From the sequence record MN850583.1: a stretch of DNA of 42,507 bases. One strand, written 5' to 3'. Below are positions 23,363 to 42,507 of the stretch, one piece after another. Every line of letters begins with the position of its first letter. Within the stretch, counting starts at the first letter, position 1. The notes under the pieces are model-generated. The model was not told the DNA's origin. It ran no database searches and worked only from the letters and a program-made list of their open reading frames with translations. A program made the position numbers and the translations under genes. Source of the DNA: Escherichia phage glasur.

Positions 23363-23374
23363 TTTGGAGATTAC

Positions 23375-24610: not shown

Positions 24611-24631
24611 TTTCTTTCGTAAGGACTTCCC

Positions 24632-25624: not shown

Positions 25625-25634
25625 TGGCAAACTC

Positions 25635-25658
25635 GAAGCCCTTCTCACGAGGGGCTTC
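25635..25658 (+). terminator. Hairpin downstream of the major capsid gene (stem GAAGCCC/GGGCTTC, loop TTCTCACGAG); putative late terminator or processing site
   Basis: 7-bp GC-rich stem directly after the capsid stop codon, the position of T-phi in T7. Downstream CTATGATTG is only weakly U-rich. Confidence 0.45.
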
Positions 25659-25680
25659 TATGATTGTCACTGGAGGTTTT

Positions 25681-26229
25681 ATGACTTTACTCGAAGCAGT
25701 TAACATTGTTCTTCGGGCATTGTCGGAGCACACCGTATCCTCGACTGAGATTCGAAACCCGTCCGTTACCCTTGCACTTGACAAGATTAATGTGGCGACG
25801 GAAGAAGTCCTCACCGATGGCTGGTGGTTCAACAATATCCGAATCACCATTCCACGCGAGTCGGATGGTCGAGTCAAATATCCCGCAGACGCACTGAGCT
25901 TCATCCCCGATGGGTTTGAGTGTATTGTGCGAGGCGGGTATCTTTACAACGCGCAATCCCAAACCTTTGTTTTTACTGAGGATGTTCCGGGATTGGTTAC
26001 TTATGATTTGGGGTGGGATGACTTACCGAGTCCTGTTCAACGACTCATTGCATATCAAGCAGCTATCTCAGCTTACGCCGACGACATTGGGGATAACCCT
26101 CCGGCCAGCGTGACAGGCGGCTATGCTATGGCGTTGCAGCAGTGCCAGTCAATCCATACCCGTCAACGTCGATTCAATGCACGCCAGCGTCAGAGCTGGT
26201 GGCGATATGAGAGTGCTCGGAGAGGATAA
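25681..26229 (+). CDS. Tail tubular protein A (T7 gp11-like)
   Basis: ATG at 25681 with GGAGG upstream, inside track ORF 25624..26229. 182 aa; assignment by position and size. Confidence 0.65.
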   Translation: MTLLEAVNIVLRALSEHTVSSTEIRNPSVTLALDKINVATEEVLTDGWWFNNIRITIPRESDGRVKYPADALSFIPDGFECIVRGGYLYNAQSQTFVFTEDVPGLVTYDLGWDDLPSPVQRLIAYQAAISAYADDIGDNPPASVTGGYAMALQQCQSIHTRQRRFNARQRQSWWRYESARRG

Positions 26230-28673
26230 TGCCAGTATACCAAGGCGCTTATAAATCCATCCTCGGCGGCGTGAGCCAGCAGGTCTATACTGACCGCCAG
26301 CTATCGCAGGTTGAGGAACAGGTCAATATGACCTCTGATACCGTGCGTGGCCTGCGTAAACGCCCCGGCACCCGCGACACTAAACTGGTGGACTCCACCA
26401 ACGCCAGTGTCTGGAGCCTTGGTAACTTTGGCCACCTGCGCTTTTACACAACCAACCTTGGATGGGGTGTCACTACCTTCGTGGTCAATACGCTGACCGG
26501 GTACGTCACCTCATTCGTTGAGACTGAGACTGTCCAATTCATGGGGCAGTCCAACTACCTGATTACCTCCAACCCTGACGACATTGTATTCACGACCGTA
26601 GGCAACACGATGTATGTGGCCAACTGTTCGAAGCTACCTGTTTTGCTTGAGAACGAAACGCGAATGAATCCGGGTCGCCGGGGTTACTTTTTCGTTTTGG
26701 CTGGTGCCTACGGCAAGCAGTACACTGTTCGCATTGAGACGAGCGGCGGCGCATACAGCGCCTCGTACACCACCCCGGACGGCACTACCGCTGGTGATGC
26801 TACCAAGGCCACTGCCGAGTACATCATTGGTCAGTTGAAGACTCAGCTCGACACTGCCATTGGCGGCTCTACCGGGCTTGAGGTTGTGCAGACGGACGGG
26901 GCGTACATGTACCTCCAGACGACTGCCGCGTACACAGACCTGAACGTATCCACGAACACTGGCTCAACGTATGCCATCGCATCCAACACCCACAGGGTTG
27001 ACCTGACCACCAAGCTCCCGGCACGTCTGCCGACTCAGGCTGGTGGCTTCATCATGACAGTGGGTGATGACAGCTTTGCGCAATACTTCCAGTGGGATTA
27101 CGCCAATTCGCGCTGGGTGGAGAAGGGTGCCTACGGCTCACCGACCGGGATTAACCCAAGCGGTATGCCGCTGGTATTCAACACGACCAGCACGCTCAAT
27201 CAGCACTCGTTCGCTCAAGGCTCTTGGCCGGGGCGTACTGCTGGCGATGACAAGACCAACGCTATCCCTGCATTCACCGACGCCAATGGCGTGGGCATCA
27301 CTGGGCTGGCATCGTTCCAAGGTCGCCTGATTATCTTCTCTGGCCCGTACATCACCATGGGTTCCAGCGATAAGGATGACCGGACTAACTTCTTCCGCAC
27401 CACTGTGACCCAGTTGCTGGAGAGTGACCGCATTGAGTTCACCGCGTCGAGCTTCGCTGGCGCATCGTTCCGGTATGGCATCCCGTTCAACTCTGACCTG
27501 ATTCTGGCCAGTGAAGAACATCAGGCCGTCATCCCCGGACGTAACCAGATTCTGTCACCGAGCAACGCCACGGCTGTACTCACCTCGACGTACCAGATGG
27601 ACACTGGCGTAGCACCGACCACCTCTGGCCGCAGCCTGTATTATTCGTACCCGCGCTCGAACAGCTCGTTCTCCATCAAGGAGATGCTGCCGTCCGGCTA
27701 CACGGATTTGCAGTATGTGAGTCAGGACGTGACCGACCATCTACCAACCTATCTGGAAGGGGCAAACAGCTACATCTCTGCCAGCACCACGAACAACATC
27801 GTCGTGTTTGGCTCGACCACTGAGCGCTCGACGCTGTACGTGAACGAGTACCTCTGGTCGGGGGATGAGAAGGTAATGTCCTCGTGGCATCGCTGGGAGC
27901 TGTACGGCACCATCCACGCAGCGTGGTTCGTCCGTGAGGTTCTGGTAGCGCTGGTTGAGCAGAATGGCCACATGCACATGCTCACGCTGTCTATGCGTGA
28001 TTCACCAGACCCAACTGACCCAGCACGATTCCTGCCTGCGATGGACTATGCGCAGAACATGACCGTGACCAACCCAAGCACGGATAGCTCGTACATCCAG
28101 TTCGCTGCCGATGGCGTGCAGAAAGCGCTATGGGATATTATTCAGGCCCGGTATCTGGCCGCTGGCAATACTGACTTCATGACCACGGTTGTGCCGTCCG
28201 GCAACTACATTGGTGCCGAGGTGGGTATCAAGTCAGTGGACACCACGAACCGCCGCCTGTACCTGCAACCGTCTTATGGCTCCACCACCCTGTGGGTTGG
28301 CCTGCGCTTCACCGCGCTGTTCAGTCCGACGCCGCCGCGCATCTTCAATGGTGACGGCTCGTACATGGACGTGAACAAGATGGTCGTGATGTTCTACAAC
28401 TTCACCCTGCGGTACACCAGCCTGTTCAATATCACGGCGACTGACCGGGGAGCATACGACGCCTACAACATTGAGTCCAGCCCGATTCGTTACACCAGTA
28501 AGGAACTCGGATTGGAATCTGCAATGTTGGCGAAACGTGCGCACCTGAAAGTTCGCATGGGCCTTGAGGTCGAATCCAGCAGCATGGTCGTTGATTCGTC
28601 TACGGCTGGCGACCTGAATATTCAGGGGCTGGGTTATTACGTCAAGTTCTACAATCGCACTCGGAGAATTTAA
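26229..28673 (+). CDS. Tail tubular protein B (T7 gp12-like)
   Basis: 814 aa at the canonical position. GGAGAGGA ribosome-binding site. Confidence 0.75.
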   Translation: MPVYQGAYKSILGGVSQQVYTDRQLSQVEEQVNMTSDTVRGLRKRPGTRDTKLVDSTNASVWSLGNFGHLRFYTTNLGWGVTTFVVNTLTGYVTSFVETETVQFMGQSNYLITSNPDDIVFTTVGNTMYVANCSKLPVLLENETRMNPGRRGYFFVLAGAYGKQYTVRIETSGGAYSASYTTPDGTTAGDATKATAEYIIGQLKTQLDTAIGGSTGLEVVQTDGAYMYLQTTAAYTDLNVSTNTGSTYAIASNTHRVDLTTKLPARLPTQAGGFIMTVGDDSFAQYFQWDYANSRWVEKGAYGSPTGINPSGMPLVFNTTSTLNQHSFAQGSWPGRTAGDDKTNAIPAFTDANGVGITGLASFQGRLIIFSGPYITMGSSDKDDRTNFFRTTVTQLLESDRIEFTASSFAGASFRYGIPFNSDLILASEEHQAVIPGRNQILSPSNATAVLTSTYQMDTGVAPTTSGRSLYYSYPRSNSSFSIKEMLPSGYTDLQYVSQDVTDHLPTYLEGANSYISASTTNNIVVFGSTTERSTLYVNEYLWSGDEKVMSSWHRWELYGTIHAAWFVREVLVALVEQNGHMHMLTLSMRDSPDPTDPARFLPAMDYAQNMTVTNPSTDSSYIQFAADGVQKALWDIIQARYLAAGNTDFMTTVVPSGNYIGAEVGIKSVDTTNRRLYLQPSYGSTTLWVGLRFTALFSPTPPRIFNGDGSYMDVNKMVVMFYNFTLRYTSLFNITATDRGAYDAYNIESSPIRYTSKELGLESAMLAKRAHLKVRMGLEVESSSMVVDSSTAGDLNIQGLGYYVKFYNRTRRI

Positions 28674-28675
28674 AT

Positions 28676-29410
28676 ATGGGTTGGGCAGCTTTTGCTAAAG
28701 CTGGTGCCGACGCCACGAACTCTTTCATCACCACCTATGCTCAGGGACGAGCAGAACGTGCGCAGATGAAAGCTGTGCAGGCAGAGAACGAACGCCTGAA
28801 CAAGCAGACGTGGCAGGCAATGGGCCAGCGCATCAACACCGTCAATCTCCAGCGTGGCCTACTCCGGCAGCAAACTGGCACCGACCTGTACAACATCAAC
28901 AAGGAAGCTAACCGGGCAGCAGGTGCCAGCATCAACAACGCCGCCGCCGCTGGTATTGAAGGTGCGTCGGTTGACGAATCAGTCAACGATATCAGTCGTC
29001 AGAATCAGGAAAGCCAAGCGCAGACCCGGTTCAATGAGCAGATTCAGGAGATGAATCTGGACACGAGCATTGAGGATATTGTGAACACGGCAGTCGCCGC
29101 GCAGCGATACTCTCAGAAACCTGCGAGCAACAGCATGATTGTTGGCCGCGCCATCGGCGTGTCTGCAATGCAGTTCGCTTCCAGCCTCGCGCAGACCAGC
29201 TTCGACTACATGCCTACTGAGGGTGCCAAAGGCACAGGTACTCAGGGTGGTAGCGGATTGGGTGGCCTGTCCGGGAACACTGGTGCGAGCACGGTTCAGC
29301 TCGGCACTACCAATTGGATGCAGAAAGCTGGGGAGTTTGACCCGGTTCCTGCTCAGTACAGTTCTAATCGCTACACGGGCTACAGCTCCGGTAGCTTGTT
29401 TGGGGGCTAA
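28676..29410 (+). CDS. Internal virion (core) protein, small
   Basis: 244 aa, Gln/Asn/Ala-rich with Gly-rich C-terminus. Position corresponds to T7 gp13/gp14. Confidence 0.6.
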   Translation: MGWAAFAKAGADATNSFITTYAQGRAERAQMKAVQAENERLNKQTWQAMGQRINTVNLQRGLLRQQTGTDLYNINKEANRAAGASINNAAAAGIEGASVDESVNDISRQNQESQAQTRFNEQIQEMNLDTSIEDIVNTAVAAQRYSQKPASNSMIVGRAIGVSAMQFASSLAQTSFDYMPTEGAKGTGTQGGSGLGGLSGNTGASTVQLGTTNWMQKAGEFDPVPAQYSSNRYTGYSSGSLFGG

Positions 29411-29412
29411 TC

Positions 29413-32109
29413 ATGCCAATTATGCGTGACCAGCGTGGCGCTAATCTCAACGCTGCGCAACAGGGCGTACCGAATGTGCAGCAGGCTCAGACTCCGTTTA
29501 GTCTCGCAGGCCGCGATACTCGCATCGACACGTTCCCTACTGAGTCCATCCAGCGCGTACTCAACATGGCCAGCGCACTTGCTGGCCGTGTCACTGAGCG
29601 TGCTAACGAGGAAGAATACCTCAAAGGTGCCAACGCCGCCGCGAGCGGCAAGGCTGTTGAGGATTTGGATTCGAACTGGCTGACAGCTCAGTTCCAGAAA
29701 GCTGGTTATAACGACCAATACAAGCGTATGCAGATGGCTGGTGTGGCCTCTGATATCTCGGCCAACATGACCGAGTACGCGAAAATGTCTCCGCAGGACT
29801 TCCTCAAAGTCATTGACGAGAAGACTACCGGGCTGTTCGACAACACTGATGGCATGACCCTTCGTGGTCGCCAGTCACTGCTGGAGAACCAGCTCACGTT
29901 CAGCAACACCCTGATTCGCACGCAGGCTGCCCAGCACGGTAAGTATCTGGTTGAGCAGCGTGCAGCAATGTACAACTCACAGGGTAACACTCTGGTTACT
30001 CTGGCGGCTCAGGCCAAGGCTTCCGGCGACGGCGGTGCGTATGCAAACGCCACGGCTGCGACCATGGCATGGGCTAAGTCCATTCTGGCCGACGACAAGC
30101 TGCCGCTGGAAACCCGGCGCACGCAGGTCACTTCCATGATGGGCCTGATGCTTTCTCAGGATTTGCGTACTCCGGTCGAGACTGCTGTTAACTCCGGCCT
30201 GTTCAACGACCTGCCTGCCGATGACTTGGCCAAGCTGCAAGGTCAGATTCGTGAATCCAAATCTCGTACCGAGGTGCAGGATAACATGGGTCTGCTGGAG
30301 GCGAAGGGCCAGCTTGATGCTCGTCAGGCTGTGTTTGGAGACGTTACGCCGGGCCAGTACGGTCAGGTGCTCCAGCAGTTGGTGGACAACAAGCTCATCA
30401 CTGCTTCCGGGTACAGCTCGGCTATCGAGTCCTTCTACAAGGATTACGCCAAGCAAGCCAAGGCCAGCCAGCTCGGTCAGGCGTATGCCACCGGGAACCA
30501 GACGTACATGCTCCAGCAGGGCGCAAGTGAGCAGGATGGTGCTGACGCATTCATCAAAGCTCGTATGAAGCAGCCGGGCGCTACGGCCAGCTCTGTGGCA
30601 TTCGACCTGCTGCAAGTTGGCGCACAGACTGGCTTCCCGTCTGCGTACAAATCCGCAGCCAAACTGATTGAGCCATCCCTGTCGAACTTCGGCACCGTGG
30701 ATGAGATGAACCCGGATGCTGCCCGTACCGTCACTGGTCTGATTGACCGTGTGACTGTGGCAGAAAATCAGGGTGACAAGACCGCGTGGACTAAGCTCCT
30801 GTCTGGTCTGTCAGAGGAAAACCAAGAGAAGATGGTGTACATGCGCGAGCAGATTAAAGCTGGCCGCACCATCGACCAAGCTGGTCAGGGTTACATCAAG
30901 CAGCAGCAGGACTATGCTGGCTTAACTCCTGCTCAGAAGTCCCAAATCTTAACACAGCGTCAATCTGACGTGAACAGTGTAGTCAACTCACTTGAGTCCC
31001 AAGGCTTCTTATCTCGCACTTGGCAGGGCTTAGCTGGTCTGTTCTCAGACACTCAGCAGAACCTGTTCCAAGCTCGCGTCGCATCTGGTGACATTACTGC
31101 TGCGCAGGAAATGTCGGAGGTGTCTGCCGCGTACCGCGAGGAACTGCAAGCTGTTGTCCTCAAGAACCCGAACATCACGAAAGACGGTATGGAAGCGCTC
31201 GCGTCTGCGAAGCTGGCCAACCGCGTGCTGCGCGTCGGGGAGACTACGTTCAGTCCCGGCTCTGTGCTTATCGCTCCGAGAAACCAAACTGTTCAGTCTA
31301 TGCTTGGCTTGCCTGCTGACGTGGCACCCGACCGTATCGGTCGCGCCATCGCCTCACTTGACCAGAGCAAGGCACCAGAAGGTTTCGAATCGTCCTACTC
31401 GTTTATGCCCGATGGCTCACTGAACGTTCAGTTCTTCAACAAGACGGGTGACGTTTCCCCGAACAGCTACCGGATTACGCCGCAGGCTATTCAGGAACGT
31501 ATCCGTGAAGACGACCGTGCAGCCGCCACCGCAAATAACGAAGTCTATGGCGATGGGAAACTCTTTGTCGATAAGTCCAGCAACATCGGGATTCGCGTCA
31601 ACGGCGTGAATACTGCTGGGGTTGATGAGCAGCGTATGCTCTACGCCCGTGGCAAGCTGATTGACTTCGAAGGTATCCGCAACACCACCTACCGCGACTC
31701 CACTGGTGTCAGCACCAACGGCATCGGTATCTCTGACCGCAGCCCGTACTTTGCGGAAGGTCAGGCATCCGGTATGCGCGGCGGTACTGAGTGGTCGCCT
31801 CGAACCATTCATGACACGTTCGTTAACCACACCAACATGGTGGCCCGGCAGATGCCCGGTACTGCTGCTGCGCTGGGCTGGAGTCGTGACAACGACGCTC
31901 AGTTCCAGTTCATGATGCAGATGGGCTATCAGGCAGGTTCAAGCTGGTATCGTGCCGAGGGTGCGTACAGCAAGCTGGCTGATGCTATCCGTGTTGGCGA
32001 CCGTGACAAGGCTGTTCAGGCTCTGGCTGCGACTCCGGCTTACAAGCTATCGCAGGATGAGCGCAAGCAGTATTACGTCCAAACTCTACTCGCAGGTATG
32101 CAGGAATGA
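29413..32109 (+). CDS. Internal virion (core) protein, T7 gp15-like
   Basis: 898 aa, position and size. Confidence 0.7.
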   Translation: MPIMRDQRGANLNAAQQGVPNVQQAQTPFSLAGRDTRIDTFPTESIQRVLNMASALAGRVTERANEEEYLKGANAAASGKAVEDLDSNWLTAQFQKAGYNDQYKRMQMAGVASDISANMTEYAKMSPQDFLKVIDEKTTGLFDNTDGMTLRGRQSLLENQLTFSNTLIRTQAAQHGKYLVEQRAAMYNSQGNTLVTLAAQAKASGDGGAYANATAATMAWAKSILADDKLPLETRRTQVTSMMGLMLSQDLRTPVETAVNSGLFNDLPADDLAKLQGQIRESKSRTEVQDNMGLLEAKGQLDARQAVFGDVTPGQYGQVLQQLVDNKLITASGYSSAIESFYKDYAKQAKASQLGQAYATGNQTYMLQQGASEQDGADAFIKARMKQPGATASSVAFDLLQVGAQTGFPSAYKSAAKLIEPSLSNFGTVDEMNPDAARTVTGLIDRVTVAENQGDKTAWTKLLSGLSEENQEKMVYMREQIKAGRTIDQAGQGYIKQQQDYAGLTPAQKSQILTQRQSDVNSVVNSLESQGFLSRTWQGLAGLFSDTQQNLFQARVASGDITAAQEMSEVSAAYREELQAVVLKNPNITKDGMEALASAKLANRVLRVGETTFSPGSVLIAPRNQTVQSMLGLPADVAPDRIGRAIASLDQSKAPEGFESSYSFMPDGSLNVQFFNKTGDVSPNSYRITPQAIQERIREDDRAAATANNEVYGDGKLFVDKSSNIGIRVNGVNTAGVDEQRMLYARGKLIDFEGIRNTTYRDSTGVSTNGIGISDRSPYFAEGQASGMRGGTEWSPRTIHDTFVNHTNMVARQMPGTAAALGWSRDNDAQFQFMMQMGYQAGSSWYRAEGAYSKLADAIRVGDRDKAVQALAATPAYKLSQDERKQYYVQTLLAGMQE

Positions 32110-35100
32110 TTACACAAGAATCGCTCGACAAGTTCATGGCTCCCAAGCAGGGGGCCAATGCCCCTACGCTGGTGATTCCAGCTCCCGTAAAAGCTGAGAC
32201 GCTCAGCACTCCACTGCAAGACGCCACTCGTCAGGGTGCCGTTGAGCAGTTCGATAAGATGCAGGAACTGGAAGCGACACCAATTGCCACGGCTTTGAGC
32301 GCTTCTGTGAAGAACTGGGATACAACTCAGCTCTTTGATGCGGCATTCAACAAGCCTGTGTTTCAGGCTGACCCTGACTTCCATCCGAACGAGGCATTGC
32401 AGAATGTCCAGTTCCCGGTGACTGAGGATGACCGCACGTTCCTGTTCAAGTCCAAATCAATGGATGAGTTCAACTGGCGTACACAGCAGCTCCAAGAGAT
32501 GCGCGAACGTACCCAGTTGGCTCACACTGCGCCAGTGATGAACGCAGTGCTGCAATTCGCTGACCCGCTGTACCTCGCCACTGACCTGCTCTCGATGGGA
32601 GCAGGCACTGCCCTGAAACTTGGTCGCCTCGGAACCGCCGCTGTCGGTGCAGCTTCAACTGCTGCCACTATGACAGCGGTGGGTAACGAAGCACGCCCAG
32701 TGTCTCAGAACGAGATTATCTTTGCGGCTGCCCTGCATGGGGCGGCCACCACTGCATTCTATCGCCCCGCCGCTGCGCCAGCCCGTCGCCTTGATGAGCT
32801 GTCGCCGGAGGAATTTGCGGCAGAGATGCAGCGCCGTAACGGTATCGACCCGAACAACCCGCCGCAGTTCGACCCGAACAATGCCATGTCTCCGCTGGCA
32901 ATGTCACTGGGCTTCGGGCGTCGTGGTGCCATGGAGACTGATGAGGTTCCTGAATCCATCCGGGCTGCGGCTCAGCGTGGACTCGACCTCGCTCGCCGTG
33001 GTGAGCAGACCAACCCTAAGCGCCCGTTCCTTGAGTGGTCACTGTTCAAGTCGTTCAGTCAGCATTCTGATGAAGCCAGTGCTCTGGCCGGGCGTCTGCT
33101 GGATGACCCGCTGAATCCGAACATGACCTCTGCTGCTGCAATCCAGCGCGAGACTCAGGCTCGCTTCGGCGTGCTGCTGAACCAGTATGAAGACACTCTG
33201 CGTCATGCCCTGACCACTGACGGTTGGAGTAACATCCGACGCTTCCGTGACCCGGTTGGCTATCGCCGGGCGCAGCAGGAGTTCGAAGCTGCTGTTCGTC
33301 TTGAGCTGGACAAGCGCATGATTGACAATAACTTCCGTGGCGCTAACCCGAATGTGGCTAATGCTGCTGACCGACTGGGCGAATACTCTCGCGCTGTGGG
33401 CCGGGAGCTGGAGCGCAAGGGTATGGTTGAGCCGGGCTTCGTGGAGAAGAACCCGTACTACTACCCTCGCCGGATGAACGTGACTAAGGTTGAGCAGGCT
33501 GAGCAGTTGCTCGGCAAGAAGCCATTCATGAAGCAGATGACGACTGCTGTGCAGCGCGGTATCGGTACTGACCGTCCGACTGCCAACGTCATTGCCCATG
33601 CCATGGTTGAGCGTGCTCGCCGTAAGGGTTACGGTATCGACAACTCCGGTATGATTATCAACAAGGAGGGCCGCGATGAGCTGCTCGAAATCATTGAGAA
33701 CTCGAAAGGACTTGACGAGGCTGCCAAGGCCCGTGCTTCCGCACTCCTTCGTGAATCTGGCTCGGACGCTGGCCGACCGTCGATGCTTAAGAGCCGTATC
33801 AACATCGACATGATGCACCAGCTTGGCCCTAACTTGCAGGTGCGTGACCTGTTCGATGACAGTATCACCAGCATGATGGATGCGTACAACCGCCGCATTA
33901 CCGGGCGACTGGCGCTGCATGAGGCTGGACTGGGTACTGACGCCGAACGCGCTGCTGCTCGTGAGGCTCTGGCCAAATCCATCAAGGATGGTATGGCACG
34001 ACGCCAAGCATTGGAGCAGTATGACAACATCATGGCCTATTATCAGGGTTCCCCGGTCGGTGAGGAAATGCCGCAGTTCATGCGCCAGCTCTCTGCACTG
34101 ACTCAGGCTACTGGTCTGGCTGCATCCGGTCTGTGGCAGTTGGTGGAATACGGCACGATGATGCAACGTTTCGGGGCGGTCAATACATTTCGCGCCATGA
34201 TGCGCACAATCCCGGAAGCACGCGCATTATTTAAGCAGATGAGAGTGACTACTAAGGAAGGTCGTCAGTTGGCCTTGGATGCTGAGGAAGCTCTGACCGC
34301 TGCTGTGGCAAGTGATATCCGTATGCGCCCAATCATGCAGCACTATGAAGACATGTTCTCTGCTGACAAGTCACCGTGGGTTATGCGTCTTGAGCACGCC
34401 CGTGACGCCACGATGTTCATCAACATGCAGAAATACATCCACTTCCACCAGACTCGAACCAATGCTGCGCTCGTGATGCAGACGCTGCGTAAGGCAGCCG
34501 AAGGTGATGCCAAGGCTATTGCAGCCATGAAAACCTACGGTGCCAATGACGCGCTGCTGGCTGACATTCGCAAGCAGGTTGGTACTCATGGCACCAAGCC
34601 CGACGCTTGGGATGAAGGGGTGTTCAATCGCTCTCGCATTGTCATGATGAATGCCATGGATGACGCTATTGTTCGCGCTCGTGTAGGTGAGCTGCCTGCA
34701 TTCGCAGAGTTCAGCACGCTGGGCAAGTTCCTGTTTACGTTCCGTCGATTCGTCGCGGCTACGCACAACAAGACTCTGGTGGGTACATGGAATCGTGAGG
34801 GTGCGCGTGGTATGGCTACGCTCATGGCGTACCAGTACCCGCTGGCAATGATGGCCACTGCCGCCAACAACGTGATTTCCGGTAAAGCATTCTCCGACCC
34901 GGAAACCATGGCACCTAATAAGCTGGCTGGCCAAGCGCTGAATTATCTTGGTGCTATCGGCTTTGCCTCTGAGTTCACTGGTGTCCTGACTGGGCAGCAG
35001 CGTAGCTTCGGTGCGCCGGGCTTGCTGTTCCTTGACCGCGCTTACGGTGTGGCAGGCGCAGCTACCAGTGCTGCTGGCGGCGTGCTGACTGGTGATACCG

Positions 35101-35213
35101 AGCAGGCAGTGTCCGGCGCTCGTAAAACGGCAGGTAACATCATCCAAGCTATCCCACTCATCTCAATCGTGCCGGGCGTCCGAGCACTCAACGAAGCAGT
35201 TAAGGGTGAATAA
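32106..35213 (+). CDS. Large internal virion (core/ejection) protein, T7 gp16-like
   Basis: 1035 aa, position and size. I could not confirm a lytic transglycosylase motif by eye. Confidence 0.7.
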   Translation: MITQESLDKFMAPKQGANAPTLVIPAPVKAETLSTPLQDATRQGAVEQFDKMQELEATPIATALSASVKNWDTTQLFDAAFNKPVFQADPDFHPNEALQNVQFPVTEDDRTFLFKSKSMDEFNWRTQQLQEMRERTQLAHTAPVMNAVLQFADPLYLATDLLSMGAGTALKLGRLGTAAVGAASTAATMTAVGNEARPVSQNEIIFAAALHGAATTAFYRPAAAPARRLDELSPEEFAAEMQRRNGIDPNNPPQFDPNNAMSPLAMSLGFGRRGAMETDEVPESIRAAAQRGLDLARRGEQTNPKRPFLEWSLFKSFSQHSDEASALAGRLLDDPLNPNMTSAAAIQRETQARFGVLLNQYEDTLRHALTTDGWSNIRRFRDPVGYRRAQQEFEAAVRLELDKRMIDNNFRGANPNVANAADRLGEYSRAVGRELERKGMVEPGFVEKNPYYYPRRMNVTKVEQAEQLLGKKPFMKQMTTAVQRGIGTDRPTANVIAHAMVERARRKGYGIDNSGMIINKEGRDELLEIIENSKGLDEAAKARASALLRESGSDAGRPSMLKSRINIDMMHQLGPNLQVRDLFDDSITSMMDAYNRRITGRLALHEAGLGTDAERAAAREALAKSIKDGMARRQALEQYDNIMAYYQGSPVGEEMPQFMRQLSALTQATGLAASGLWQLVEYGTMMQRFGAVNTFRAMMRTIPEARALFKQMRVTTKEGRQLALDAEEALTAAVASDIRMRPIMQHYEDMFSADKSPWVMRLEHARDATMFINMQKYIHFHQTRTNAALVMQTLRKAAEGDAKAIAAMKTYGANDALLADIRKQVGTHGTKPDAWDEGVFNRSRIVMMNAMDDAIVRARVGELPAFAEFSTLGKFLFTFRRFVAATHNKTLVGTWNREGARGMATLMAYQYPLAMMATAANNVISGKAFSDPETMAPNKLAGQALNYLGAIGFASEFTGVLTGQQRSFGAPGLLFLDRAYGVAGAATSAAGGVLTGDTEQAVSGARKTAGNIIQAIPLISIVPGVRALNEAVKGE

Positions 35214-37585
35214 TGGCGAACAGCTACAACACTTACGTGGCGAACGGCTCGCAGACCGCGTTCCTCGTTACGTTTGAGCAGCGCGTGTTCACACAGATTC
35301 AGGTGTACCTCAACTCCGAACTCCAGACGAGCGGGTACACCTACAACTCTGTGACCAAACAGATTGTCTTTGACACCGCCCCGCTCGCCGGGGTGATTGT
35401 CCGTTTGCAACGCTATACCTCTGAGACTCTGCTGAACAAGTTCGGACAGGACGCTGCCTTTACAGGCAGCAACCTCGACGAGAACTTCGAGCAGATTCTG
35501 TTCAAGGCTGAGGAAACTCAGGAAGCATGGCTCGCGCCGCTTGACCGCGCCGTCCGTGTCCCGAACTCCGAAGTCTCCATCAACGCATTACCGAACGTCG
35601 CTGGCCGCCGCAACAAGGCACTGGGCTTTGACAGCAATGGCCAGCCGTTCATGATTCCTCTGGTTGATATCCCTGACTCCGCGCTGGCTATCGCACTTGC
35701 GATGAATGACGGCGGTAAGTGGATTGGTACACTGGGCGGCGGCACGTTCCTCGACCGTCAGGATACCGTGTGCCTGTCAGAGTTCACCAACAACACCGGG
35801 TACGCCTCTATCGCCGCTGCGGTACAAGCGTGCTTTGATTATGCCAAGGCTAACCACAAGACTGTGGATGCCCGTGGCTGGGTCGGTACTGTCAACTCCA
35901 CTGTCCTGATGGACGGCATTGAGGTTGTCGGCGGCACTTGGAACGGTACGGCTGATATCCGACTGCTGGACTCCACGTTCCGCGACTTCAAAGCCTCGAC
36001 TGTCCGTGTCTGCTACTGGGGTGGTAAGGTTCGCATCTCTGATTATGAGTTCACTGGTGCGCCATCGAACTCCAAAGTAGCGAGCATTCTGTTCCAAGGC
36101 AACATCGCCGGGGGCAGCTATGTCATTGAGAACGGTATCCACCGCAATGGCAAGTTCGGTATTCTCCAGCAGGGTACTGGTGAGGCTATCGAGAACGGCG
36201 TTATCCGCAACATCGCTATGATGAATATGCTGGGTGACGGCATTGAGATGAACGTAATCAACAAGCACTATGATGGTGGCCTGCTGATTGAGAACATCTA
36301 CCTCGAAGACCTCGACGGTACGACTGCGCCTATCCCCCTGTCCAACTGGGGTATCGGCATCGGTATTGCTGGCCAAGGCCCGTTCGGTTGGGATGCTGCT
36401 GAAACGCAGTACGCCAAGAACGTGGTCGTCCGTAACGTCCATGCTCCGCGTGGCGTGCGTCAGGTTGTCCACTTCGAAGTTACCCGCGATAGCGTGTGTG
36501 AGAACGTGTTCTGTAACCCTGACCTCGCTGTGTCCACTGGTACTGGCCTAACGGCGGCAGGTGTAATCACCTACGGCTGTAAGCGCATGACCATTGACGG
36601 CGTGGCTGGTGAGCCAATCAACACTGGCGCAACCTCCCCTAACGCGATTCGTCTCGTTATGTTGGAGTGGGGTGCGAACCAAGCAGGTGCAGGCGGCACG
36701 CCGGGCGCGGCATGTCCTTCGTTTGATATGACTGTGCGTAACGTGCAGACCCGTACCGGACGCTTCTACGCTGGTGTTGGCTCCGACGACACGAACAACA
36801 ACACGTATCATCTGGAAAACATCCACTGCCATACGATGAGTCTGTTCGGCGTGGCGACGCTGCTGAATATGACAAACGTGACTGGGGTGGTGTTCGATGC
36901 TGTAGGCGATGACTCCAGCGGCGGCACCCCATCCAATGGTCTGTACCCGCGTAAGAAGACTGTTCTCAACATGGTGAACGTGAACTTCTACGGGCCGGGC
37001 ATGACTGAGGGTGCGCTGTACAGTAAGGCTCGCTACTCGGATATCAGCACGCTGAACTCCAACGTGCGTGCTATCCCGTACACCAACATCCAAGGTAACG
37101 TAGGCGTCGTCCTGTCTCCGGTCAACCGCATGTACACGCTGCCGAATAACCTTGCAACCTTGACTGGTGGGGAGTTCCCGACTGGTAAAGAGTTCTGCGA
37201 GGGGACGGTGCTGTTTAAGACTGACGGCTCTGGTGGCAACTTCATCGTGACTGGCTTCGGTGCGTATATCCCGGATGACGGGAACAACTTCAAGGTACGT
37301 GCTGCTGCCGCTGGCCAGACGTATCTTGAGCAGAACCTGACTCCGGCTGGTACTCAGGCTTCCACCTCGTGGTTGTACCATAAGCCTATCTCGGCTGGTA
37401 CTCGTCTACAGGTGCCGGGCGCTGGTGCTGGCGGTGCAACACTGACGGTTACGGTGGTTCGTGCGCCTTATCAGGTGGACAACAACATCGGGAACCCGGT
37501 ACGCATCGACATTACCCCGGCGCTCGTGACGGCTATCCCTGCTGGGACTCAGCTCGCCGCGACGTACCCGGTCACTTACATCTAA
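35213..37585 (+). CDS. Tail fibre/tailspike with T7 gp17-like N-terminal anchor and probable beta-helix receptor-binding or depolymerase domain
   Basis: N-terminus MANSYNTYVANGSQTAFLVTFEQ... resembles the conserved tail-attachment domain. Central region has G/N/I-rich repeats typical of right-handed beta-helices. Confidence 0.75.
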   Translation: MANSYNTYVANGSQTAFLVTFEQRVFTQIQVYLNSELQTSGYTYNSVTKQIVFDTAPLAGVIVRLQRYTSETLLNKFGQDAAFTGSNLDENFEQILFKAEETQEAWLAPLDRAVRVPNSEVSINALPNVAGRRNKALGFDSNGQPFMIPLVDIPDSALAIALAMNDGGKWIGTLGGGTFLDRQDTVCLSEFTNNTGYASIAAAVQACFDYAKANHKTVDARGWVGTVNSTVLMDGIEVVGGTWNGTADIRLLDSTFRDFKASTVRVCYWGGKVRISDYEFTGAPSNSKVASILFQGNIAGGSYVIENGIHRNGKFGILQQGTGEAIENGVIRNIAMMNMLGDGIEMNVINKHYDGGLLIENIYLEDLDGTTAPIPLSNWGIGIGIAGQGPFGWDAAETQYAKNVVVRNVHAPRGVRQVVHFEVTRDSVCENVFCNPDLAVSTGTGLTAAGVITYGCKRMTIDGVAGEPINTGATSPNAIRLVMLEWGANQAGAGGTPGAACPSFDMTVRNVQTRTGRFYAGVGSDDTNNNTYHLENIHCHTMSLFGVATLLNMTNVTGVVFDAVGDDSSGGTPSNGLYPRKKTVLNMVNVNFYGPGMTEGALYSKARYSDISTLNSNVRAIPYTNIQGNVGVVLSPVNRMYTLPNNLATLTGGEFPTGKEFCEGTVLFKTDGSGGNFIVTGFGAYIPDDGNNFKVRAAAAGQTYLEQNLTPAGTQASTSWLYHKPISAGTRLQVPGAGAGGATLTVTVVRAPYQVDNNIGNPVRIDITPALVTAIPAGTQLAATYPVTYI

Positions 37586-37594
37586 GGAGAAACC

Positions 37595-37900
37595 ATGGCA
37601 TCCGTGAACAAGCAGCTCGATGGGCTGCACCGGATGCTGGTGGAGTATCTGTCCGACCGCTTGGCCGACGCCCGTAGAAAAGATGAGAACGGTAATATCA
37701 TCGAACCTATGGCGGCGGCTGAGCTGTCCGTGCTTCGCCAGTTCCTGAAAGACAACGGCATTCAGGCTGATAAAGACCACGCTGACGACCTGCTCGCGCT
37801 GCAAGAACAGCTCAACAACGAGAAGACCGAGGCTGGCCGCAAGGATATCATGACTGCTGCCATCAACTCAATCGCAGAAGATAGCGGGATGATGCACTAA
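37595..37900 (+). CDS. Terminase small subunit (T7 gp18-like)
   Basis: 101 aa helical protein immediately upstream of the large terminase, overlapping it by TAATG. Confidence 0.55.
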   Translation: MASVNKQLDGLHRMLVEYLSDRLADARRKDENGNIIEPMAAAELSVLRQFLKDNGIQADKDHADDLLALQEQLNNEKTEAGRKDIMTAAINSIAEDSGMMH

Positions 37901-39660
37901 TGGATTTACAACGCCGCATGGTGATGGCAGGAATCGTTCGCGCTCACTACGAGAACAACTTCCCGCTGTTCCTGCACGACTACTTCGCATGGCTGGGCTT
38001 TGACCTCACTGAAATGCAGCTCGACATTGGCCGCTACATGGCCGACCGGACGCTCAAGAACAAGTGCGTCATGGCGCAGCGCGGTGAGGCTAAGTCCACC
38101 ATCGGCATTGCTCGCGCTCTGTACGAATTTGTGCAGATGCCGAACGCTACTGTCCTGCTCGTATCCGGTTCCGACGACTATGCTGGTACGCTGTCGCACG
38201 CTATCGTGTCGGCTATCATGCAATGGGACAGGTTGGAATGGTTACGCCCGGAGACTCGCGCTGGCGCACGTACATCGTACACCGATGGCTTCGACGTGCA
38301 TCACGCATTCCGTATCCCTGATAAACAGCCCTCTGTAAAAGCGGTCGGTATCTTCGGCCAGTTGCAGGGGAACCACGTATCGCTGTTGATTGCCGATGAC
38401 GTGGAGACTACCAGTAACGGTAGCTCTCCTGCCAACCGCGCCCGTATCAATACCCTGACCAAAGAGTTCGCGGCTATCGCCAATGACGGTGCAGAGATTC
38501 TGTACCTCGGTACACCGCAGACTCAAGACTCCATCTATAACACGCTCCCGCAGCGTGGCTTTGATGTTCGCATCTGGCCCGGTCGTTTCCCAACGGTTGA
38601 GGAAGAAGAACGCTACGGAGGCTGTCTGGCCCCGTGGATTAAGCAGAAGATGGAGGGCCACCCGGAACTTCGCACAGGTTATGGTATCCTTGGGAACCGT
38701 GGTGCGCAGACCGACCCGCAACGCTACTCCGAAGAAAAGCAGTTGCAGAACGAACGAGACTACCAGCAGGCAGGCTTCCAGTTGCAGTTCATGCTGGACA
38801 CTTCTCTGTCGGATGCTCTCAAACAGACCTTGCATCTCAAGGACTTAATCTTCTTCCACGGCTCGCCTATCTCCGCGCCGGAAGTCTTGCATTGGTCGAA
38901 TCACCCACGGCACGCCGCCGAGCTGCCACTGGATTTCCCACTCGCTCGTGCGCAGCTATTCTTGGCTGCTGATTTCTCGGACACTTATGTACCATTCGAA
39001 AATGCCTCGGCGTTTCTTGACCCTGCTGGTGGTGGGTCGGATGAATCAGTTATCATCGTCACCGCTTCTATCGGCCCGTTTATCCACGTCCTTGGTATGC
39101 ACGTCTACCACGGCGGCCAGACGGAGGAAAACATCCAGACGGCGGTGTCGTGGCTAGGTGAGCTGGGCTGCAAACGTCTCGTCATTGAGGACAACATGGG
39201 CCACGGCACCGTGACCAACATGTACCGAGGTGAGATTAAGCGGCAGAAGCTGACCATGGGCTGCGAGGGTGTGTACTCGTCCGGCCAGAAAGAGGTGCGT
39301 ATCATCAACCGCCTCGGCCCAATCATGCAGCGCCACCGTGTGGTTGTCCACTGGAGCGTTGTTGAAGAAGACCTGCGGTTATGCCGGGGTATGGCCAACG
39401 GTGGTCGTGAGTACAGCCTGTTCTGGCAGCTCCAGAACCTGACTCAAGACCGTCAATCCATCCCGCATGATGACCGAATTGAAACCTTAGCCGCTGCCGT
39501 GTACCTCCACGCCGAGGTGTTGCAGCAAGACGAAAACGAAGAAGCGGAGCGCCGTGCAGTCGCTGTGGCCAAAGAGTTCATCGCCAACCCTATGGGGTAT
39601 GATGACCCGAAATGGCGCAGCCACAAGCCTGTACGCGGTACGCGACGGAGAATTAGATAA
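37900..39660 (+). CDS. Terminase large subunit (T7 gp19-like)
   Basis: 586 aa, the same length I recall for T7 gp19. Walker-B-like LLIADDVETT; canonical position. Confidence 0.85.
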   Translation: MDLQRRMVMAGIVRAHYENNFPLFLHDYFAWLGFDLTEMQLDIGRYMADRTLKNKCVMAQRGEAKSTIGIARALYEFVQMPNATVLLVSGSDDYAGTLSHAIVSAIMQWDRLEWLRPETRAGARTSYTDGFDVHHAFRIPDKQPSVKAVGIFGQLQGNHVSLLIADDVETTSNGSSPANRARINTLTKEFAAIANDGAEILYLGTPQTQDSIYNTLPQRGFDVRIWPGRFPTVEEEERYGGCLAPWIKQKMEGHPELRTGYGILGNRGAQTDPQRYSEEKQLQNERDYQQAGFQLQFMLDTSLSDALKQTLHLKDLIFFHGSPISAPEVLHWSNHPRHAAELPLDFPLARAQLFLAADFSDTYVPFENASAFLDPAGGGSDESVIIVTASIGPFIHVLGMHVYHGGQTEENIQTAVSWLGELGCKRLVIEDNMGHGTVTNMYRGEIKRQKLTMGCEGVYSSGQKEVRIINRLGPIMQRHRVVVHWSVVEEDLRLCRGMANGGREYSLFWQLQNLTQDRQSIPHDDRIETLAAAVYLHAEVLQQDENEEAERRAVAVAKEFIANPMGYDDPKWRSHKPVRGTRRRIR

Positions 39661-40331
39661 TGTCCCTGATTACCATCACCGATGCTCAGCGTTACGATAT
39701 CGGTTATCGCTGCAACATCGCAGCAAACCTCACCCAGCGGTTCGTGAATGATACCCGGACGGTGACGGCAGCTCAGGCTGCTGCTATTGATACAGCCATC
39801 GAGAACCTCATGACGGCGTTGGAAGCCGCAGGCTATAGTTCCGTACCGGATGGGTCTGCCATCGTCGCAGACGGCGCTGCAATCAACGTGGTGAACTTCA
39901 ATGGTACGGTCACTAAGGCTGGTACTGTTGACGTTACTGACGGTGTTGCTTCGGTCAACTTCCCTGTCACCATCGGTATGAAAGCCAATGGCGAAACTAT
40001 CTCTGTTCAGAACGTGTCCGGTGCCAATGGCATTGGCTCCACTGCATTCGTTGACTCCAACGGTGTGCTGCTGGCTGCCCGGCTCCCGGCTACCGCCGCC
40101 ACGCTCCAGAACAACGCTACGATTCAGATTCGCAACTCTGCGGGTACTGCTATCGGCAACGCCACCTTCAACGTGGCCTCTGGTGCCATCACCTACGGTT
40201 CGCTTCCGGCTACCATTGCTGGCGTAACCAACGGTCAGGCACTCACTGGTGTTGCGCCGACTGGCACGTACACCAACACTGTAACCTTCACTGTAGCTGG
40301 CGGCGTCATCACAGCTATCACATTGTCTTAA
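39660..40331 (+). CDS. Thr/Gly/Ala/Asn-rich beta-type protein of unknown function (223 aa); possible accessory fibre or adhesin-like virion protein
   Basis: ORF track. Imperfect internal repeats (NGTVTKAGTVDVTDGVASVNF, IGNATFNVASGAITYGSL, TGTYTNTVTFTVAGGVITAITLS). Unusual placement between terminase and lysis genes. Confidence 0.6.
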   Translation: MSLITITDAQRYDIGYRCNIAANLTQRFVNDTRTVTAAQAAAIDTAIENLMTALEAAGYSSVPDGSAIVADGAAINVVNFNGTVTKAGTVDVTDGVASVNFPVTIGMKANGETISVQNVSGANGIGSTAFVDSNGVLLAARLPATAATLQNNATIQIRNSAGTAIGNATFNVASGAITYGSLPATIAGVTNGQALTGVAPTGTYTNTVTFTVAGGVITAITLS

Positions 40332-40342
40332 TAGGAGTTCTT

Positions 40343-40528
40343 ATGGCCTTATCTGCATCTACCGCAGCCGAACGCGCCGAGTTCGTGGCAGCCTGTAATA
40401 TGGCAGCCAAGTACCTGAACGTTTGGGTTGAGGACGGTTACTTCGACACGACCAACACTGCTCTGATTGCCTACTATCAGACCTTCGTTACCCGTGTCTC
40501 TAACGCCCTTACTGCGCTGACGAACTAA
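40343..40528 (+). CDS. Small protein of unknown function (61 aa)
   Basis: ORF track. AGGAG ribosome-binding site. Confidence 0.6.
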   Translation: MALSASTAAERAEFVAACNMAAKYLNVWVEDGYFDTTNTALIAYYQTFVTRVSNALTALTN

Positions 40529-40539
40529 CGGAGTAACAT

Positions 40540-41028
40540 ATGAAACTGTCTCGGCTTATGGCCGGGGCAGTCTTGTCTCTGTCCTTGACATTGACGGGCT
40601 GCTCCGCAACAAGCGCACTGTCTGCTGTAACCTCGGCTGTCTCTCCCAATAAGCCGGAACTAACGGCACAGGTTGGCGCAGAGAACACGAAACAAGGCAT
40701 CGGCTTGACTGCGAAACAGTCCGACGAAACGAAGGTCGGTGACGTATCTGGTAACGCGCAAGTGGATACCGCTAAACAGGGTAGTGATTCGACGACTGTG
40801 AAGGACGTCACAGGAGGCTCTGTAAACGCTTCTAAGCAGGGGTCGCAAATGACCCAAGGGAACGTACAGGCTAAAACTGTTGTCATCTCACAGAGCGACC
40901 CACGCAGCCTCCTATGGGCTTTCGGCATGGGTCTGACCTGTATCTTAGGCTTGGTAATGTGGTTTGTACCATCTCCGTGGAAAAAGAAGGTGAAAGATGA
41001 CGGAAGCAAAGAAGGAGCCAGCTCCTAA
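40540..41028 (+). CDS. Putative unimolecular spanin (N-terminal lipoprotein signal plus C-terminal transmembrane helix)
   Basis: Lipobox LTLTGC at the N-terminus, Thr/Ser/Lys-rich periplasmic region, C-terminal helix LLWAFGMGLTCILGLVMWFV followed by basic PWKKKVKD. Adjacent to the endolysin gene. Confidence 0.5.
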   Translation: MKLSRLMAGAVLSLSLTLTGCSATSALSAVTSAVSPNKPELTAQVGAENTKQGIGLTAKQSDETKVGDVSGNAQVDTAKQGSDSTTVKDVTGGSVNASKQGSQMTQGNVQAKTVVISQSDPRSLLWAFGMGLTCILGLVMWFVPSPWKKKVKDDGSKEGASS

Positions 41029-41380
41029 CATCCACTCGCGTATGGGCGCTGTGGAGGCTCGTATGCAATCCGTAGAAACTCGCCTCGACAAACACGAGAT
41101 TCAAATTGCCAACCTTGAGAAAGGTGACGCTGCTATGCTGGCCAAGCTATCGGAGAACGACTCCCGGTGGCTGGAGATTCAGCAGCAGCTCCGTGTCGTC
41201 GAGCAAATTCAGGACATTCAAAAGACTATGAGCCACATTGGTAAGCTGTTTACTTACGCGGCTCACGCCGTCAAGTGGTGTCTCCTGACCGCTTCACTCG
41301 TTAGCGGTATCTATCTTGCGGTCAAGGCTGGCGACCTCACGGCGCTCCAGTCCTTTATCACAACGATTATGGGGATGTAA
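40997..41380 (+). CDS. Holin-like or lysis-regulator membrane protein (127 aa; coiled coil plus C-terminal transmembrane helix)
   Basis: ORF track. AAGAAGG ribosome-binding site; hydrophobic WCLLTASLVSGIYLAVKAG near the C-terminus. Assignment mainly from position immediately upstream of the endolysin. Confidence 0.35.
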   Translation: MTEAKKEPAPNIHSRMGAVEARMQSVETRLDKHEIQIANLEKGDAAMLAKLSENDSRWLEIQQQLRVVEQIQDIQKTMSHIGKLFTYAAHAVKWCLLTASLVSGIYLAVKAGDLTALQSFITTIMGM

Positions 41381-41916
41381 TGACTAACTTTGAAATCTGT
41401 ATGAAGTTCACCGGGCTGGCCGAGGGTGGGTACACCAAGCTGCCCGGTGACACTGGAGGGGAAACCAACCATGGAATTAGTGACGCTCGTGATGGGAAGC
41501 TGGATGGCAGAGCTTGTGGTGTCCCTACTGGGCTTGGCGGCACTGTGTGCGTGCCTATTAAACAGCTCACCAAAGAGCAAGCCGAAGCAATCTATCGCCG
41601 GGACTACTACAGCCCCATCAGAGGTGACGAGCTTCACCCTGCGATTGCATGTGCCGTGTTTGACTACGGCGTCAACTCCGGCGTCTCCCGTGCTGCTAAG
41701 GCTCTACAGCGGGTATGCGGGGTTGCACAAGACGGGGTTATCGGCCCTGCTACCGTGGCAGCAGCCAAACGTCTGGAACCTCACTCCGCAGCAGCATCCA
41801 TCTGTGACCTTCGTATTGCGTTCCTAGAGGCTTCTACGGCCACGACAGTGGTTCGCTATAGGGATGCCTTGGTTGCTCGTGCAAAACGCTGTAGCGCTTA
41901 CTGTGCGACGCTGTAG
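41380..41916 (+). CDS. Endolysin: GH108-type N-acetylmuramidase with C-terminal peptidoglycan-binding domain
   Basis: N-terminal signature FTGLAEGGYTKLPGDTGGETNHGI (the EGGY...D.GG.T.HGI family motif) and C-terminal AKALQRVCGVAQDGVIGPATVAAAKRL typical of peptidoglycan-binding repeats. No signal anchor. Confidence 0.8.
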   Translation: MTNFEICMKFTGLAEGGYTKLPGDTGGETNHGISDARDGKLDGRACGVPTGLGGTVCVPIKQLTKEQAEAIYRRDYYSPIRGDELHPAIACAVFDYGVNSGVSRAAKALQRVCGVAQDGVIGPATVAAAKRLEPHSAAASICDLRIAFLEASTATTVVRYRDALVARAKRCSAYCATL

Positions 41917-41999
41917 GGGTATCCGAAAGCTGACACAATGAACAGGCCGTGGGTGCAATACCCCGGCTTGAAAATTGAACGTTTATGCGTGGGCCTCCC

Positions 42000-42507
42000 T
42001 CGACCCAAATGACCGCGCGTACCCCCATGACGTGTGCGCGGATTAGCCTCGCGACGTGCGCGATATTGCTCGCGTGCGCTGCGCGGCGCGTCAAGAGGAT
42101 TGCCTGCGTGCGGTATAGCTCGTGCGTGTCGCGTTTCATCGTCTGCCGTGTGGCGTGCTGTGCGCTGTCCTGCTGGCTGTGCTGTGCGGTGCTGTCCTAT
42201 GGGGACGCTCTGCGCTGGCTGTGCTGTGCTGTGTGCTGCGCTCGGTCGTGCGGGTATCTGTCTCTTTTCGTCGTGCGCCGTGGTGCTGTGTGGTGGTGTG
42301 GTGTAGCGGTGGTGCTGCCGTGGTGCTGTCCTGTCTGCTGGTCTACTGTCTGCGCCGCCAGCTCTGCGCGTCATGCTCTGCTACTGTGTCACCTGTCCTA
42401 CTGCGTTCACTGGCTGCCGCCTGTCATCCTGTCGGATTCCATCCGTTGCCGTTCCGCGCTCGCTTGTTTCGGCTGCGCCGCGCTCGCTCTGCGTATCTAG
42501 CGATACA
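42000..42507. repeat. GC-rich, strongly strand-skewed (A-depleted) right terminal region with short degenerate GTGCTGT/GCTGTCC repeats
   Basis: About 6 A residues in roughly 230 nt (42130-42360) on the + strand. Recurring GGCTGTGCTGTGC and GTGCTGTCC units. Only Cys/Arg-rich ORFs with no ribosome-binding site. Confidence 0.6.
42255..42270 (+). promoter_or_regulatory. Candidate T7-RNAP class II pause/termination (concatemer-junction-like) motif TATCTGTCTCTTTTCG
   Basis: Resembles the T7 class II signal ATCTGTT followed by a U-rich tract, with one mismatch. In T7 this signal lies in the terminal repeat. Confidence 0.35.

Follow-up and report, generated by a model that had tools for sequence, protein, structure and literature searches.

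When the recombinant NST1 colanic acid-degrading enzyme (CAE; HM214492/ADI49571.1) acts on colanic acid, reducing ends are freed and the product has a mass of 1148 Da, matching a single repeat unit; the enzyme has been put to use for colanic acid depolymerisation (PMC9143390). Phage J8-65 of the genus Bonnellvirus produces expanding halos on mucoid E. coli, together with a reduction in high-molecular-weight colanic acid (PMC4179555). The tailspike colanidases of J8-65, forsur, usur, megetsur and other Bonnellvirus phages are orthologous to the spike described here and occupy the same place, flanked by the genes for the internal virion protein and TerS. More distant is gp150 of the myophage Phi92, a crystallised colanidase (PDB 6E0V, 6E0W) that is reported, at second hand as regards the linkage, to hydrolyse a Glc-Fuc linkage. 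The O-antigen endoglycosidases of HK620, Sf6, P22 and Det7 work on a similar principle, as trimeric right-handed beta-helix spikes of short tails that bind a surface polysaccharide and cut it using carboxylate catalysts, but they have other substrates, other anchors and only about 10-12% identity to the glasur spike; their resemblance is at the level of fold and not that of one sequence family. A literature search found no paper joining Bonnellvirus with colanic acid. A fire-blight paper on a 'CAase' was set aside as evidence, as its text could not be linked to NST1.

We compared these systems with the tailspike locus in a 42,507-nucleotide stretch of DNA from Escherichia phage glasur (MN850583.1; hereafter the window), itself classified in Bonnellvirus, Autographiviridae. 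The complete tailspike colanidase gene is a single unbroken ORF at 35213..37585 on the plus strand, as are all features below, with 790 codons and a TAA stop. An exact-sequence look-up of the ORF product returned an identical protein in GenBank (QHR67436.1, "tailspike colanidase [Escherichia phage glasur]"). The spike is already known, deposited and correctly named, and is an ordinary colanidase; its weight as a discovery is small, with near-identical enzymes already purified and a distant relative crystallised. The match to PHROG 6117 'colanic acid degradation' (E 9e-228), in which spike aa 89-790 aligned to profile positions 53-708 of 711, places the ORF far beyond chance.

The surrounding structural module had a canonical order: portal, scaffold, capsid, tail tube A and B, three internal virion proteins, spike, TerS and TerL. 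Reading the start region directly (35202..35215), we found that the TAA of the upstream internal virion protein gene (35211-35213) shares one base with the spike ATG (35213-35215), and that a Shine-Dalgarno-like motif, AAGGGTGA, lies 4-11 nt upstream of this ATG. No promoter or terminator signal of the spike's own exceeded shuffled expectation within 34800-38100. The spike gene is inside the late operon and translationally coupled to its upstream neighbour. Among the phage proteins scanned, no second fibre or spike gene was found. A 223-aa ORF after TerL was considered as a second receptor-binding protein and rejected, as its match was to 8VB0_J, a capsid decoration protein (E 9e-21).

The glasur spike and NST1 CAE are both 790 aa long, align at 93% identity with no gaps, fall into one 90% cluster and have their anchor, beta-helix and C-terminal domain in common. 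The 58 substitutions between them are scattered, and none falls in GDGIEMNV, NWGIGIGIAG or RQVVHFE. The colanidase function is carried over from this 93%-identical enzyme, and the invariant residues of the family are retained. At the DNA level, the Bonnellvirus spike genes were 81-96% identical to that of glasur, with 81.7% in J8-65 and 96% in forsur and usur, both annotated as 'tailspike colanidase'. All close homologs of the spike carry PF27800, according to a precomputed table. Taken together, it is very probable that this is a Bonnellvirus spike in which a T7-type anchor is joined to a beta-helix that binds and hydrolyses colanic acid. Both the hydrolysis and the halos expected of glasur are carried over from the literature on its close relatives. 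The suggestion of a potentially useful depolymerase had, in effect, already been realised, as the 93%-identical NST1 enzyme is in use (PMC9143390). Known uses of such near-identical enzymes are the cleaning of plasmid preparations and the making of colanic acid with a low molecular weight.

The original prediction of a T7-like anchor was borne out by several lines of evidence for a T7 gp17-type N-terminal tail-attachment domain at aa 1-104 (35213..35524). Pfam PF03906 matched spike aa 2-104 (E 5.6e-6, 26.6 bits) above its gathering cut-off of 25.2, albeit by a marginal 1.4 bits and over only part of the profile (positions 2-109 of 157). PHROG tail-fibre families matched aa 4-104, including PHROG 11393 tail fiber (E 7e-19), and PDB sequences of solved podophage fibre N-termini matched the anchor (8ES4_G Gp44, E 8.5e-6; 8VBX_R tail fiber gp47, E 2e-5; 23SH_r tail fiber gp9, E 1.7e-4). 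In tblastn, the anchor matched tail fibres of P-SSP7, pelagiphages and LIMEzero. The AlphaFold2 monomer had a pLDDT of ~26-56 over aa 1-183, and 34-56 over the anchor, such that strands predicted there are unreliable. Some members of the colanidase family possess a P22-type head-binding domain, PF09008.

A neck or linker appears to travel with the anchor at aa 105-161 (35525..35695), as judged from the points where identity to relatives breaks and from low pLDDT. Within Bonnellvirus, the anchor is ~95% identical whilst the catalytic part is more variable (P0005-P0007, and the 'unique version' of Lidtsur). Relatives P0005 and P0006 share 96% identity with the spike up to aa 161 and 40-71% beyond, and P0019 has only aa 1 to ~145 in common, followed by a different beta-helix. 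Homology to Phi92 gp150 starts at aa 162, and the attachment region of gp150 is different, lacking the T7-type anchor. These breaks in sequence identity place a recombination boundary of spike modules at about aa 145-161, which is the module junction to use for spike swapping.

Beyond the junction, capping helices are followed by a right-handed parallel beta-helix, which together form the catalytic (colanidase) module at aa 162-625 (35696..37087). The AlphaFold2 model was of high confidence over aa ~190-620, and predicts a right-handed parallel beta-helix at about aa 185-625 that resembles 6E0V. A T7-type shaft with no beta-helix had been named beforehand as the outcome that would count against a beta-helix depolymerase; the model contains no coiled-coil shaft, and this fold together with homology to characterised colanidases upholds the depolymerase claim. 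With T7 gp17, the spike has in common the N-terminal PF03906 domain and its gene position in the Autographiviridae late operon, but it lacks the coiled-coil shaft and the T7-type tip and is instead a beta-helix enzyme beyond about aa 161. When the whole protein was tested as a T7-type fibre, there were no long helices, with the beta-helix occupying the region beyond about aa 185. We describe the glasur protein as a tailspike that carries a T7-type anchor, not as a T7-type fibre.

The sequence rationale originally offered for the beta-helix, G/N/I-rich repeats, stood only in part. The enrichment in composition was evident: G+N+I made up 27.3% of aa 190-625. Of ten further proteins of the phage, nine had 13-19% and the remaining one 23%. 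The repeats themselves were not. For aliphatic residues in aa 190-625, the autocorrelation at rung length (lags 18-35) was equalled or exceeded in 514 of 1000 shuffles, and periodicity at rung length was also absent from the autocorrelation of G/N residues over the same region. Pfam PF13229 Beta_helix had no match to the spike at E <= 1, and relative P0009 matched it at E 0.009, below the cut-off. The repeat rationale was hence rejected, for want of periodicity and of a Beta_helix match, though the fold that it predicted was correct. On the model, the beta-helix is visible in structure and not as sequence repeats; the evidence for a beta-helix depolymerase is homology and fold. The peptide quoted as an example of the repeats, GIHRNGKFGILQQGTGEAIENGVIRNIAMMNMLGDGIEMNV, was found at aa 308-348 (36134..36256) and ends in the invariant motif G-D342-G-I-E345-x-N-V.

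The remainder of the protein, aa 626-790 (37088..37582), is a beta-rich C-terminal domain common to Phi92 gp150. The alignment to 6E0V extends through the last residue of the spike, PGAG at aa 735-738 was invariant among homologs, and pLDDT was 60-97 over the domain. Its probable role is to stabilise the trimer or to contribute to the binding of glycan.

Conservation pointed to a putative active site. Eight residues (D342, E345, W379, R416, H420, E422, R480 and W486) were invariant in 19/19 homologs, down to 29% identity, and all family-invariant residues were retained in the glasur spike. Although gp150 is only 25-28% identical to spike aa 162-790, the D342/E345, W379 and R416-E422 motifs were visibly conserved in its alignment, and D342 and E345 were kept in both gp150 and E. 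coli WcaM. The second invariant motif, RQVVHFE (R416, Q417, H420, E422) at aa 416-422 (36458..36478), has the counterparts RQCLHVE in gp150 and RQLIHVE in WcaM. Judged from conservation, D342, E345 and E422, with R416 and H420, are likely to form the catalytic centre. Catalytically inactive beta-helix spikes exist, and the spike might in principle bind its glycan and leave it uncut; with every invariant residue in place and 93% identity to the active NST1 enzyme, we give this reading a negligible probability.

The same residues bear on the chemistry of cleavage. Were it to cleave colanic acid at the glucuronic acid by beta-elimination, the spike would be a polysaccharide lyase. Beta-helix lyases typically carry a Ca2+/Arg-Lys constellation, which the spike appears to lack; its invariant residues include the carboxylates D342, E345 and E422, like those of the HK620 and Sf6 endoglycosidases. 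Furthermore, Phi92 gp150 is reported to be a hydrolase, and the 1148-Da product of NST1 is the reported mass of an intact repeat unit, released with reducing sugar (PMC9143390). We therefore consider a lyase highly improbable and favour hydrolysis.

The original prediction also assigned the spike a capsule- or O-antigen-specific role, and here it had to be revised: per the characterised family members, the substrate would be the exopolysaccharide colanic acid (M antigen slime). Most spikes with a beta-helix do have an O antigen or K-type capsule as their target, and the Foldseek neighbours of the spike include the O-antigen-specific spikes of HK620, Sf6 and CBA120. However, the isolation host of the nearest relatives was the E. 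coli K-12 strain MG1655, and E. coli K-12 has neither an O antigen (wbbL::IS5) nor a K capsule. The characterised members of the family act on colanic acid, and the catalytic core has a homolog in WcaM, a protein encoded in the colanic acid cluster. Recognition and degradation of an O antigen or K capsule is accordingly very unlikely, and colanic acid remains the preferred substrate. This would pin the host-recognition determinant of glasur to colanic acid. With colanic acid as the substrate, mucoid or low-temperature-grown Enterobacteriaceae would be favoured as hosts, explaining the preference of such phages for these cells.

In the mechanism we propose, the gene encodes the sole tailspike of glasur, a podophage, and the anchor (~105 residues) and the ~55-residue neck would attach the spike to the tail. 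The analogy with T7 and phiKMV-like phages suggests a probable arrangement of six trimers where adaptor and nozzle meet. The beta-helix (~185-625) would bind colanic acid, a slime under Rcs regulation in E. coli and related Enterobacteriaceae, and cut it endolytically, by hydrolysis, into repeat-unit oligosaccharides. By binding and cutting, the virion could clear a path through the slime and so reach the outer membrane, and enzyme diffusing out of plaques would give rise to halos.

Colanic acid may be a mere barrier, with an outer-membrane receptor bound by another part of the tail, or else the obligatory primary receptor. The isolation of relatives on non-mucoid MG1655 agrees with a barrier, as does the way in which T7-like nozzles touch the cell envelope after fibre binding. 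Set against this, only one fibre/spike gene was found in the structural module. Room temperature and lon mutation both favour colanic acid synthesis. Titration of J8-65 used either MG1655 kept at room temperature or, at 37 C, a mucoid lon mutant, and the phage does not grow on strain IJ1133 (PMC4179555). We regard the barrier reading as possible, at somewhat below even odds; the host data for J8-65 and the single spike gene hint at a requirement for colanic acid.

The beta-helix core of the spike was also homologous to WcaM (b2043), encoded by the last gene of the E. coli colanic acid cluster (32% identity over 253 aa, E 2e-17; hhalign probability 99.4%). The two proteins have every candidate active-site motif in common. 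WcaM is 464 aa long and has a twin-arginine signal peptide (SRRTFL), whereas the spike has no RR signal peptide; conversely, WcaM lacks both the phage anchor and a C-terminal domain homologous to that of gp150. Against the WcaM equivalog (TIGR04004/NF007517), the spike scored 63.6 bits, below the cut-offs of 794.6 and 808. By these sequence comparisons, it is a homolog of WcaM and not a member, and the 'WcaM' labels on phage homologs in GenBank are misnomers. In the literature, we found no paper joining WceF with WcaM, the WceF paper was silent on colanic acid and gp150, and a search on WcaM with hydrolase and beta-helix gave no WcaM paper among the matches listed. It is conceivable, at a little under even likelihood, that WcaM is the cluster's own periplasmic colanic-acid glycanase, which would trim or recycle chains in the manner of other exopolysaccharide systems, and that the phage modules were captured from, or donated to, the enterobacterial wca locus. 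This homology is a modest lead on an E. coli gene; under the glycanase reading, the glasur spike stays an ordinary colanidase.

The glasur tailspike is encoded by a single plus-strand ORF of 790 aa (35213-37585), matching exactly the coordinates in the original prediction. An exact-sequence look-up identified it as QHR67436.1, 'tailspike colanidase [Escherichia phage glasur]'; the finding is already known. The spike matched PHROG 6117, 'colanic acid degradation', over aa 89-790 (E 9e-228), and its 90% cluster included the characterised NST1 colanic acid-degrading protein (93% identity across all 790 residues, no gaps). All sequence and fold features of the phage colanidase family that could be tested were found in the spike. 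Judged on these sequence and fold features, it is a member of this family. The genome belongs to Bonnellvirus (Autographiviridae), and phages forsur and usur were the closest records in the phage collection, sharing 96-98% identity over the first 25 kb and 96% DNA identity in the spike gene. Two further cluster members, P0025 (162 aa) and P0029 (81 aa), were partial spike copies entered as 'hypothetical protein' and lying on 3.4-kb and 245-bp contigs in assemblies of Enterobacter kobei and Enterobacter cloacae. These are probably phage DNA inside bacterial assemblies, which fits the presence of Enterobacter-infecting relatives among the DNA matches to the spike gene.

The proposed architecture, a beta-helix depolymerase behind a T7-like anchor, was supported, for the beta-helix by Foldseek and an AlphaFold2 model confident in that region, and for the anchor by Pfam. 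The anchor (aa 1-104) scored 26.6 bits against PF03906, the T7 tail fibre N-terminal domain (cut-off 25.2), and was also matched by several PHROG tail-fibre families. Compared alone with solved podophage tails, this segment matched the fibre N-termini of Gp44 from Shigella phage HRP29 (8ES4), gp47 (8VBX) and gp9 (23SH). Tblastn matches to tail fibres came from P-SSP7 (annotated '17: T7-like tail fiber'), pelagiphages, cyanopodophages and LIMEzero. Resemblance to a T7-type fibre was confined to the anchor. The catalytic module (aa 162-625) was confidently modelled, with Foldseek in agreement, and was followed by a beta-rich C-terminal domain (aa 626-790). Like the module, this domain is shared with Phi92 gp150, the colanidase tailspike of a myophage, up to the last residue. 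The module had also been described as rich in G/N/I repeats. The quoted peptide is present at aa 308-348 and the enrichment is real, with G+N+I reaching 27.3% across aa 190-625; of ten other proteins encoded by the phage, nine had 13-19% and one had 23%. However, no rung-length periodicity was detected in aa 190-625 (observed autocorrelation reached by 514/1000 shuffles) and the Pfam Beta_helix repeat model did not match the spike; thus, repeats as such were not demonstrable in the sequence.

The neck (aa 105-161) was inherited jointly with the anchor. Two homologous tailspikes, P0005 and P0006, were 96-97% identical to the spike up to aa 161 and 40-71% thereafter. Across the genus (P0005-P0007), anchor plus neck (35213-35695) shared 86-97% identity and the enzyme part (35696-37582) 36-71%. 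Another homolog, P0019, matched the spike only from aa 1 to ~145; a TSP1-type domain comes next, and the beta-helix that it carries is a different one. These alignments show mosaicism with a junction near aa 145-161. Over the window's first 25 kb, phage HHU8 (PQ641135) was 88% identical in DNA, but the N-terminus of its 'tail fiber protein' was just 43% identical to that of the spike. The colanidase module is widespread: tblastn located it in 254 phage records, including phi92-like and phAPEC8-like myophages, jumbo phages such as PBECO4, Sortsnevirus and GAP31-like phages. No fewer than three kinds of anchor precede it (PF03906, P22 head-binding PF09008 and TSP1/gp66 PF18668), a textbook case of tailspike modularity.

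Nine polar residues were invariant among 19 homologs down to 29% identity (D342, E345, W379, R416, Q417, H420, E422, R480 and W486), and gp150 retained the D342/E345, W379 and R416-E422 motifs. D342 and E345 lie near the end of the quoted peptide, and from the analogous HK620 and Sf6 endoglycosidases we infer them to be candidate catalytic carboxylates.

The same region revealed homology to WcaM (b2043) of E. coli K-12, whose gene is the last of the colanic acid cluster. NCBIfam WcaM models matched aa 304-464 (E 1.3e-17, 63.6 bits; cut-off about 800), BLASTP aligned the two proteins at 32% identity over 253 aa (E 2e-17) and hhalign returned a probability of 99.4% over 273 columns. The homologous regions comprise spike aa 231-472 (35903-36628) and wcaM, on the minus strand of the K-12 sequence (L002:6503-7897). 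Both proteins contain GDxIExNV, NWGIGIGxAG and RQxxHxE, all candidate active-site motifs, and WcaM carries a twin-arginine (Tat) signal, SRRTFL. Given the shared motifs and this signal, WcaM appears to be periplasmic and related to the phage enzyme, and the homology suggests that it may be a periplasmic colanic-acid glycanase. No paper stating this relationship was found in the literature. Several GenBank phage records (H36, H60, H61, H65) label the tailspike homolog 'colanic acid biosynthesis protein WcaM', so the similarity has already been met by annotation pipelines; borrowed from the bacterial protein, this name misleads when applied to a depolymerase of the virion.

Evidence on relatives sharpened the predicted substrate. 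The recombinant NST1 enzyme released reducing ends from colanic acid, yielding a product of 1148 Da, equal to one repeat unit (PMC9143390), and gp150 is reported as a hydrolase of a beta-1,4 Glc-Fuc bond in colanic acid (Xu 2025, via PMC13450770). This supports the spike as a predicted colanic-acid hydrolase, retaining the depolymerase of the original prediction and changing its capsule or O-antigen target to colanic acid. Most likely, the gp17-type domain would hold trimeric spikes at the adaptor-nozzle junction, the arrangement observed in a phiKMV-like tail, and the spikes would bind and hydrolyse colanic acid, bringing the nozzle to the outer membrane. Colanic acid may be indispensable for infection or may be a mere obstacle; the plating conditions of the related phage J8-65, whose titration used either room temperature or a mucoid host, give a hint of the former (PMC4179555).

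The spike ATG, preceded by a Shine-Dalgarno-like motif (AAGGGTGA), shares one base with the TAA of the upstream gene for a 1035-aa internal virion protein, and the small terminase subunit gene begins 10 nt past the spike stop with its own GGAG. Promoter- or terminator-like sites around the spike gene did not exceed shuffled expectation. The structural module has the canonical layout: portal, scaffold, capsid, tail tube A and B, three internal virion proteins, spike, TerS and TerL. No second fibre gene was found within it. A 223-aa ORF just past TerL (39660-40331, plus strand; PHROG 9732, unknown function; 'hypothetical protein' in sister phage forsur) matched over aa 108-223 a protein of known structure, 'alpha-paw decoration protein gp43' (8VB0_J, E 8.7e-21); it probably encodes a capsid decoration protein and not a second receptor-binding protein. 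In the structural half the annotated genes, and in the first half the matched homologs, are on the plus strand. GC skew was steadily positive (about +0.03 to +0.16) across the early and replication genes (1-23000) and approximately zero or slightly negative across the structural half (23000-42507).
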